A stretch of DNA of 10,567 bases, from the IMG/VR virus record IMGVR_UViG_2802429231_000001; one strand, 5' to 3'. The notes under the pieces are model-generated. The model saw only the letters and a program-made list of their open reading frames with translations, did not search any database and was not told the DNA's origin. A program made the translations under genes and the position numbers. Of this stretch, positions 1,707 to 1,860 are shown in pieces (the first letter of the stretch is position 1; each line of letters starts with the position of its first letter). The stretch comes from a virus. Its lineage: Duplodnaviria; Heunggongvirae; Uroviricota; Caudoviricetes.

Positions 1707-1819
1707 ATTTTATCTCCGCATCTTCGGATTGGGTGTTGATGACGATGTGCTACTTGAAGCACTTGAGTTGTTTTAACGTAGTATCTGAAATGTGTAGACT
1801 GACCGGTAACAAATGACAA

Positions 1820-1854
1820 CTCGTAGAATCGGTTAACACACCAGATTCTACGAG
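1820..1854. promoter_or_regulatory. Perfect 11-bp inverted repeat (CTCGTAGAATC, 13-nt spacer, GATTCTACGAG) forming a potential stem-loop or dimeric protein-binding site immediately upstream of the 1861 start
   Basis: Read directly from the sequence: arms 1820..1830 and 1844..1854 are exact reverse complements. The 3' arm plus 1855 contains the GAGG Shine-Dalgarno for the ATG at 1861. It is followed only by GTTTCA, so there is no strong U-tract. Confidence 0.4.
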
Positions 1855-1860
1855 GTTTCA

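Follow-up and report, generated by a model that had tools for sequence, protein, structure and literature searches.

What is the role of a perfect inverted repeat that lies exactly where a late phage operon begins, at the border of a variable block of upstream genes? This question is raised by a stretch of viral DNA of 10,567 nucleotides (nt) from the Caudoviricetes (IMG/VR record IMGVR_UViG_2802429231_000001), which we refer to in its full length as the window. It represents a segment of a P1-like phage-plasmid, its positions 1808-10505 being 97-98% identical to the minus strand of phage P1 in BLAST comparisons. Between the end of an open reading frame (ORF) at 522-1706 and the start codon of pmgC at 1861 lies a spacer of 154 base pairs (bp; 1707-1860), in which two 11-bp arms form an exact inverted repeat (1820..1830 and 1844..1854). 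An earlier note on this DNA had pointed out the repeat, the spacer and the GAGG in front of the ATG at 1861, all with coordinates that hold, and had proposed translational control linked to upstream transcription. This proposal remains the best-supported reading; what it had missed is that a late promoter, LPsit, resides in the stem, so that the control would be specific to certain transcripts instead of general. We thus favor, with somewhat better than even confidence, the view that the hairpin serves this P1-like phage-plasmid as a translational gate, embedded in LPsit, that discriminates between transcripts. The elements concerned are the following.

1811-1819, plus strand: -22 box of LPsit, AAATGACAA here and AAATGACTA in P1 (one base differs); presumed binding site of Lpa.
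1820-1830, plus strand: 5' arm of the hairpin, CTCGTAGAATC, made up of the promoter spacer CTCG, the -10 hexamer TAGAAT and one C.
1824-1829, plus strand: -10 hexamer TAGAAT of LPsit, inside the 5' arm and the same in P1.
1831-1843, plus strand: hairpin loop, GGTTAACACACCA, 13 nt, containing the predicted late start at about 1836-1838; the variable part among relatives.
1844-1854, plus strand: 3' arm of the hairpin, GATTCTACGAG, the exact reverse complement of the 5' arm; beyond its GAG, pairing is its sole known role.
1852-1855, plus strand: Shine-Dalgarno sequence (SD) of pmgC, GAGG, 5 nt before the ATG at 1861, as read from the sequence.
1861-2427, plus strand: pmgC, the orthologue of the P1 gene (PHROG 1851), heading the late operon pmgC-tub-pmgB-sit-pmgA-bplA-16.

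Among perfect inverted repeats with arms of at least 9 bp and a loop of 3-20 nt, this one is the only instance in the 10.5-kb window. The expectation for 11-bp repeats is 0.04 per window by chance, and any such repeat was found in just 2.5% of 200 dinucleotide-preserving shuffles. As RNA, the segment 1815-1866 is predicted to fold with -20.5 kcal/mol, compared with -6.6 +/- 2.2 kcal/mol for its shuffled counterparts (z -6.4; 0 of 200 shuffles as stable). The fold extends the stem by three further inner pairs (GGU/ACC), with A1843 bulged out, and places the GAG of GAGG within the stem. The sequestration of the SD that the earlier note had envisaged for the RNA is therefore borne out by the folding energies. 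A search of 1600-2000 on both strands with the covariance models of Rfam 15 returned no match at E <=1.

The promoter assignment rests on the GenBank record of P1 (AF234172 / NC_005856), which annotates LPsit at the position orthologous to the hairpin, with coordinates that map to 1811-1829 of the window; it was transferred through the identity to P1, which amounts to 98% from 1808 onward. All 11 annotated late promoters of P1 share one architecture, (AC)-9-bp box-spacer-TANNNT, with a spacer of 4 nt at ten of them and of 9 nt at LPhot. In the window, AC and AAATGACAA occupy 1809-1819, the 9-bp box being related to AAGT[G/T]ACTT, which usually follows AC. As is usual for this promoter type, a -35 element is absent. 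The subsequent 4-nt spacer CTCG (1820-1823) forms the outer part of the 5' arm and lies opposite the CGAG of the SD; it is fixed at LPsit and varies at the other ten P1 late promoters. In P1, the boxes of LPsit and LP26 read AAATGACTA, those of the other nine AAGTGACTT or similar to AAGTTACTT. When searched with AARTNACT-N5-TANNNT at <=1 mismatch, the window matches only at LPsit (1811-1829) and at LPs (10053-10071, upstream of R). That the hairpin might be an integral part of the promoter was rejected on account of LP26, which shares both the -22 box and the TAGAAT hexamer with LPsit and lacks the hairpin. The stretch of the P1 annotation inspected around LPsit lists promoter elements and no hairpin, stem-loop or feature occluding the ribosome-binding site. 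Likewise, the literature on LPsit and pmgC, to the exclusion of the P1 genome paper (Lobocka et al. 2004), yielded no description of the hairpin for P1.

The position of the promoter has a direct consequence. Since the -10 hexamer lies inside the 5' arm, a transcript from LPsit should not contain that arm (1820-1830); with late transcripts lacking it, the hairpin would form only in RNA that arrives from upstream. At the mapped P1 late promoter Ps, transcription starts 9 nt past the -10 box, the canonical distance being 7 nt. By this geometry, LPsit should start at about 1836-1838, within the loop.

Is this arrangement maintained in evolution? To compare the junction in relatives with other upstream modules had been a suggestion of the earlier note, and the comparison shows that the hairpin is kept in the two closest groups. 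We collected 163 PmgC loci by alignment-based scans and further loci by exact-protein look-up, which fall into four groups; a single-protein scan of genome contigs yielded 5 loci only, the alignment-based scans being the productive ones. The segment that runs from the -22 box to the ATG is preserved beside at least nine unrelated upstream contexts, with invariant stems and a variable loop and flanks.

In clade A, which comprises P1, P7 and plasmids of Escherichia coli and Salmonella with PmgC proteins 96-100% identical, the block reads ACAAATGAC[A/T][A/T]-CTCGTAGAATC-loop-GATTCTACGAG-GTTTCA-ATG and stands beside at least five unrelated upstream sequences, homology breaking off directly 5' of the AC before the -22 box. 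The stems never vary within this clade; what varies is the loop, the last two positions of the box and the spacer between SD and ATG. In one variant of the loop, G1831T, A1843 is no longer bulged and forms a twelfth pair. Clade B (PmgC 74-78% identical; Salmonella, Klebsiella and Enterobacter) has a stem of 13 bp, CTCGTAAAATCGG / CCGATTTTACGAG, with predicted energies of -22 to -24 kcal/mol, beside at least four different upstream contexts. Its -10 hexamer is TAAAAT, which still fits TANNNT, and the G to A change therein is matched by a C to T change in the 3' arm, converting a G-C into an A-U pair; one lineage of the clade has a U.G wobble. An additional outer helix in clade B pairs the -22 box with the AUG region. 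The -22 box is conserved in clades A and B, and the SD GAGG is invariant across all promoter-bearing clades.

Over 15 distinct sequences from clades A and B, all 165 of 165 cells are paired: nine pairs are invariant, one has changed in a compensatory manner and one has changed on one side only. The 22 stem nucleotides differ between the two clades only at the compensated pair, and the 13 of them that lie outside the -10 hexamer and the SD show a single change, the compensating one. Meanwhile, the fourfold-degenerate sites of pmgC are only 34-46% identical between clades A and B, which means that synonymous sites are saturated. These observations bear on the simplest alternative, a hairpin without function that arose by chance or by a local duplication-inversion and was then held in place between constrained promoter and SD nucleotides. 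In its favor, 9 of the 22 stem nucleotides are constrained for other reasons, and a third group of relatives, clade C, has lost most of the stability of the helix with no obvious consequence. However, the chance expectation of 0.04 per window is low, the 13 nucleotides with no promoter or SD role remained unchanged at saturated synonymous divergence, bar the one compensating change, and the spacer sequence is fixed at LPsit alone. We give this explanation the least credence.

The same comparison speaks to another possibility raised by the earlier note, in which the palindrome acts in double-stranded DNA as the operator of a dimeric regulator. Bound there, such a regulator would cover the -10 hexamer of LPsit and thereby repress the tail operon. 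While a perfect 11-bp palindrome overlapping the hexamer, with both arms conserved, is what such an operator could look like, the arm has no second copy in the 94.8-kb P1 genome, even when one mismatch is allowed, nor elsewhere in the window. The loop and the arm spacing differ between clades (13 vs 12 nt between the common arms), and the natural variant in one arm gives a U.G wobble, which keeps the pairing in RNA and not the symmetry in DNA. Furthermore, the 17-mer consensus of the C1 operator has no match within 3 mismatches, arms of 11-13 bp would be long for a half-site, and the near-identical promoter LP26 does without such a palindrome. An operator therefore appears highly unlikely.

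In the more divergent groups, the hairpin weakens and disappears. Clade C (PmgC 65-68% identical) has a strong terminator after bplB, followed by a recognizable promoter and a helix of the same topology that is weak, at -12.3 and -5.7 kcal/mol, and not significant. In the distant relatives (PmgC 51-61% identical; Serratia, Pantoea and others), homologues of the P1 genes 22-21-pmgG-bplB lie directly upstream of pmgC, and in most of these loci pmgC follows within a few nucleotides of bplB, with neither promoter nor hairpin. Hairpin strength thereby tracks the presence of foreign co-directional genes upstream, being strong in clades A and B, weak in clade C and absent in most of the distant relatives. 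As a side observation, one of the distant relatives (L144, ~2180-2236; 57% PmgC identity) has a strong terminator followed by a sequence resembling a late promoter, ACGTGACAA-CGGC-TAACCT, and a predicted helix whose 5' strand (GGGCU.ACG) lies upstream of or within the box and whose 3' strand touches the SD (GGAGGCCC). This single sequence may be an independently evolved analogue.

If the hairpin forms only in RNA from upstream, how strongly would it affect the translation of pmgC? We computed an opening cost, defined as the free energy that it takes to release the translation initiation region (-13 to +6) from all pairing. Read-through RNA was compared with late RNA begun 8 nt after the -10 hexamer, with the following results.

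This window: 11.1-11.6 kcal/mol for read-through vs 4.0-6.4 kcal/mol for late-start RNA.
P1: 16.3-17.3 kcal/mol for read-through vs 4.0-6.4 kcal/mol for late-start RNA.
Clade B relatives: 15.6-20.1 kcal/mol for read-through vs 3.7-9.5 kcal/mol for late-start RNA, with the value of 9.5 reached in one locus.

Among the 11 annotated late promoters of P1, LPsit has the largest difference between the two RNAs, 11.0 kcal/mol, at a median of about 1 kcal/mol. LP26 and LPdar follow with ~5.4 kcal/mol (5.3-5.5), LPpac and LPpmgL with 2.4 kcal/mol, and the rest are at ~0 kcal/mol. With LPsit at 11 kcal/mol and most others at ~0, we dropped the idea that gating is a general design of all P1 late promoters. 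Weaker versions of the LPsit design are seen in P1 (AF234172; loci L185 and L186) at LPpac (90475-90529), LPdar (31183-31230) and LP26 (78455-78503); at LPpac, ACGAAAG overlaps the SD of pacA and is the complement of CTTTCGT from the -22 box and spacer.

These energies also bear on the possibility that the hairpin is a constitutive translational attenuator within functional late mRNA, which would either start upstream of 1820 or derive from read-through from LP23, and that it keeps PmgC low relative to Tub and other products. PmgC is indeed a minor virion component (PMC9024508), the start of LPsit is a predicted one, and in clade B elements such as L176, where 22-21-pmgG-bplB, two cargo genes and pmgC all point the same way and no terminator intervenes, long late transcripts with both arms are to be expected. 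On the other hand, the promoter geometry (-22 box, 4-nt spacer, TANNNT) is identical to that of LP26 and is preserved right at the mosaic edge, and a transcript started at LPsit should not include the 5' arm. Moreover, a helix of about -20 kcal/mol that costs 11-20 kcal/mol to open would all but shut off the translation of an essential gene and not tune it. We regard such an attenuator as unlikely.

To which side of the junction does the hairpin belong? Upstream of it, the window carries the following features.

1-1706, plus strand: AT-rich variable module at the position of simABC in P1, transcribed towards pmgC, with a G+C content of 0.32-0.39.
1689-1704, plus strand: weak terminator-like hairpin with 6 pairs, of which 3 are G-C, AAGCCTCTTAAGGCTT followed by GAATTTTATC; it overlaps the 3' end of ORF 522-1706.
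1808-1810, no strand: mosaic breakpoint, at which homology to P1 and all other P1-like elements starts with the conserved AC before the -22 box.

The first 1807 bases of the window have no counterpart in P1 by BLAST, and positions 1-2100 are 100% identical to plasmids of ~95 kb from E. coli and Salmonella. The G+C content rises from 0.33-0.37 over 1-1800 to 0.46-0.49 from 1800 on, a step that corresponds to a known mosaic junction, as simABC is one of eight low-GC 'highly variable regions' in P1-like phage-plasmids (PMC9603915). Thus, the composition boundary described in the earlier note coincides with the start of P1 homology at 1808. The breakpoint at 1808/1809 is the upstream edge of the promoter, 11 nt 5' of the 5' arm, and across the 163 loci ACAAATGAC is abutted by differing upstream sequences. 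The hairpin therefore belongs to the conserved side.

This placement argues against the last suggestion of the earlier note, which had seen in the hairpin a terminator or 3' hairpin of the acquired module: it remains with pmgC beside at least nine upstream modules and lacks a U-tract. As an intrinsic terminator it does not qualify. It has in common with this class a stable stem-loop located where an upstream transcription unit ends; it differs in that the stem is not G+C-rich (5/11 G-C pairs), is not followed by a U-tract (the tail being GGTTTCAA, with three U, or GGTTGCC, with two) and overlaps a promoter and an SD, and the terminator scan made no call at it. A variant of the idea deserves closer attention, namely that the conserved side supplies a 3'-end element to upstream transcripts, where the hairpin would pause or stop transcription or would stabilize the cargo mRNAs as a barrier to 3'-5' exonucleases. 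Many cargo genes have no terminator of their own; in clade B, the stop codon of a cargo gene lies ~12 nt before the -22 box, and in L176, the one clade B locus scanned, there is no terminator-like site between bplB and pmgC. In the window, the weak site at 1689-1704 is the sole terminator-like call on the plus strand in the scan of 1500-2000, and with a stem as stable as -20 to -24 kcal/mol the hairpin could resist degradation from the 3' end. Nevertheless, its tail (GGTTTCAATG here, GGTTGCC or GGTTGGC in clade B) contains no U-tract, the scan stays silent at the hairpin itself, and P1 and clade C keep the arrangement despite their strong upstream terminators. A 3'-end element also leaves unexplained the precise match in position of the two arms to the -10 hexamer and the SD. 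As the main function of the hairpin we find it improbable; it could, however, exist side by side with gating, the two being compatible.

Translational gating, the reading that we favor, would proceed as follows. RNA entering from the upstream cargo, which is the sim operon, the SH3-protein module of the window or YfjT-like genes depending on the element, would carry both arms. It would fold into a helix of 11-14 bp that buries the SD GAGG of pmgC, and in some relatives also the AUG, so that pmgC would not be translated on read-through RNA. The untranslated pmgC would probably expose the RNA to Rho-dependent polarity, which would silence tub, pmgB and sit downstream. When Lpa activates LPsit, in turn, RNA polymerase would use the -10 hexamer within the 5' arm and start in the loop, and the resulting late mRNA, devoid of the 5' arm, would have an open ribosome-binding site from which pmgC is translated. 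We infer the existence of such read-through transcripts from the co-directional upstream genes, which end in a weak terminator in the window and in none in L176, and in strong terminators in P1 and clade C; with only 6 pairs, 3 of them G-C, in the terminator-like site of the window, read-through is plausible here. PmgC itself is an essential, head-tail adaptor-like virion protein (PMC9024508, PMC10695390). The gene was called the first tail gene in the earlier note, and it does head the pmgC-tub-pmgB-sit operon; given a product that is head-tail adaptor-like and not strictly a tail protein (PMC9024508), 'first gene of the pmgC-tub-pmgB-sit operon' is more accurate.

Several points weigh against this reading. 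The covariation amounts to one compensatory event and one wobble, with 9 of 11 pairs that never vary, and the six nucleotides of the -10 hexamer in the 5' arm and the three of the SD in the 3' arm are independently constrained. Clade C is essentially without gating. P1 has a good terminator ~130 nt upstream of the promoter, so that there would be less need for a gate in P1. Even in late RNA, the GAGG is not predicted to be fully free, as the CGAG that includes part of it can still pair weakly with the CUCG at 1890-1893. The start at LPsit is a prediction, and the promoter itself is known from a GenBank annotation. Finally, we know of no harm that results from leaky synthesis of PmgC.

The mechanism as such is already known from phage T4, and P1 would be a further case of it. 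In the T4 genes e, soc, 49 and I-TevI, a late promoter resides in the DNA that encodes the 5' strand of a helix masking the ribosome-binding site, and long transcripts from upstream promoters fold in a way that buries the SD and/or the AUG (PMC3014915). The likeness lies in the -10 hexamer within the 5' arm and the SD within the 3' arm. The promoters differ, however, with the gp55-dependent TATAAATA in T4 and an Lpa-dependent -22 box with a sigma-70-type -10 hexamer in P1. T4 is a virulent phage that gates early against late transcripts, whereas the upstream RNA would here come from the prophage cargo of a temperate phage-plasmid. The gated gene, moreover, heads a structural operon of seven genes, and gating in P1 is predicted from sequence and computation.

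An analogous case comes from the transposon Tn10. Davis, Simons and Kleckner reportedly described in 1985 a fold-back inhibition in IS10/Tn10, in which the 5' segment of transcripts from outside pairs with the ribosome-binding site of the transposase. RNAs initiated at the promoter of IS10 itself begin within the structure and can be translated. By these accounts, IS10 differs in being a transposon, in a purpose that consists in preventing the activation of transposition, and in lacking an activator-dependent promoter.

How did a promoter with a gate come to stand at this position? In a number of loci with 51-68% PmgC identity (L006, L141, L152, L164, L166, L139, L143, L171 and L174), the homologues of 22-21-pmgG-bplB are co-directional with pmgC and directly upstream of it. 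With bplB and pmgC adjacent in these relatives, a single uninterrupted late operon appears to be the ancestral state. P1 has the block pmgF-rlf-repL-kilA-ant-icd-c4-sim between bplB and pmgC; judging by gene order, this arrangement looks like an insertion of the lytic replicon, immunity I and the sim block into the ancestrally contiguous operon. In some elements of clade B (L176 and L180), only two cargo genes have been inserted, one of them YfjT-like. Pursuing this further, we tentatively propose, with low confidence, that the promoter-plus-hairpin block 1809-1863 is a conserved 'operon restart and insulation cassette', placed where an insertion hot spot between bplB and pmgC has its right edge. 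Such a cassette would admit cargo that is expressed in the prophage and has no terminator into an ancestrally contiguous late operon (22-21-pmgG-bplB-pmgC-tub...), and would limit the translation of downstream structural genes to transcripts initiated with the help of Lpa. The same hairpin would perhaps stabilize the 3' ends of cargo mRNAs. Together with the versions at LPdar, LP26 and LPpac and the analogue in L144, it would then reflect a design rule of the family.

The cargo in the window itself consists of two ORFs. The first (29-535) encodes a protein of 168 residues with a clear signal peptide, the second (522-1706) a protein of 394 residues with an N-terminal coiled coil, a hydrophobic, predicted membrane segment (FIIMWLLTEVVLGAI) and a C-terminal SH3b domain. 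Matches of the module's proteins in Pfam are limited to SH3_3, those in PHROGs to families 3429 and 7086, both of unknown function. In plasmid NZ_CP031351, the sequence of the first 1807 bases is part of a three-gene module that sits between icd-ant-kilA, on the opposite strand, and pmgC. As PADLOC gave zero matches for the upstream module and Pfam just SH3_3, we dropped the idea of a recognized defense system. The predicted envelope location of the products at the position of sim suggests a possible role in superinfection exclusion.

Some further observations concern the surroundings of the hairpin. A sequence at 1778-1788, CGTAGTATCTG, lies in the module-specific part of the spacer and copies 9 of 11 positions of the 5' arm segment CGTAGAATCGG (1822-1832). 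In the predicted fold of 1760-1920 it is this copy, not the true 5' arm, that pairs with the 3' arm (10/11 pairs). The copy is not present in the other upstream contexts and may be due to chance or be left over from a junction that was once duplicated. At 1812-1823 and 1860-1871, a direct repeat with no apparent role, AATGACAACTCG / AATGACACCACG, reflects a resemblance between the -22 box and the first codons of pmgC. A minus-strand ORF at 1628-1870 and an ORF at 1651-1776 lie mostly within the non-conserved part of the spacer.

Downstream, the gene order is that of pmgC, tub, pmgB, sit, pmgA, bplA, gene 16 and R. The promoter LPs (AAGTTACTT-atct-TACAAT, 10053-10071) is directly preceded by a G+C-rich hairpin with no U-tract, CACCCCGTCC-GCA-GGGCGGGGTG (10028-10050), which begins just past the stop codon of gene 16 and lies upstream of the promoter, not overlapping it. 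Within sit, which encodes the tape measure / transglycosylase protein, the segment 6086-6693 has no blastn match to P1 and measures 608 bp here vs 656 bp in P1; it overlaps a dip in G+C content to 0.39-0.44 over ~5400-6450. By its sequence, it looks like a mosaic replacement inside an essential gene. Homology to P1 ends at 10505, where the remaining 10506-10567 reads TGAACCGCCCCGGTTTTCCTGGAGAG... and matches the termini of elements that are annotated as IS3-family members in Stx phages. This IS3-like insertion breaks the tail-fibre gene R (ATG 10102) ~10 codons short of its normal stop.

What would a gate at LPsit mean for these elements? P1 is a model phage and a standard tool for transduction; it is also the prototype of a large phage-plasmid group whose members carry cargo for resistance and defense. 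If our reading is true, it would explain how essential structural genes escape leaky expression although variable cargo expressed in the lysogen lies directly in front of them. The sigma-70 promoters that the P1 annotation predicts upstream of pmgC would then give rise to transcripts that are silent for pmgC translation, which would be relevant for engineering the sim locus or inserting cargo there. Moreover, the principle of a late promoter inside a helix that masks the ribosome-binding site, as established in T4, would extend to a temperate phage with a different system of late transcription.

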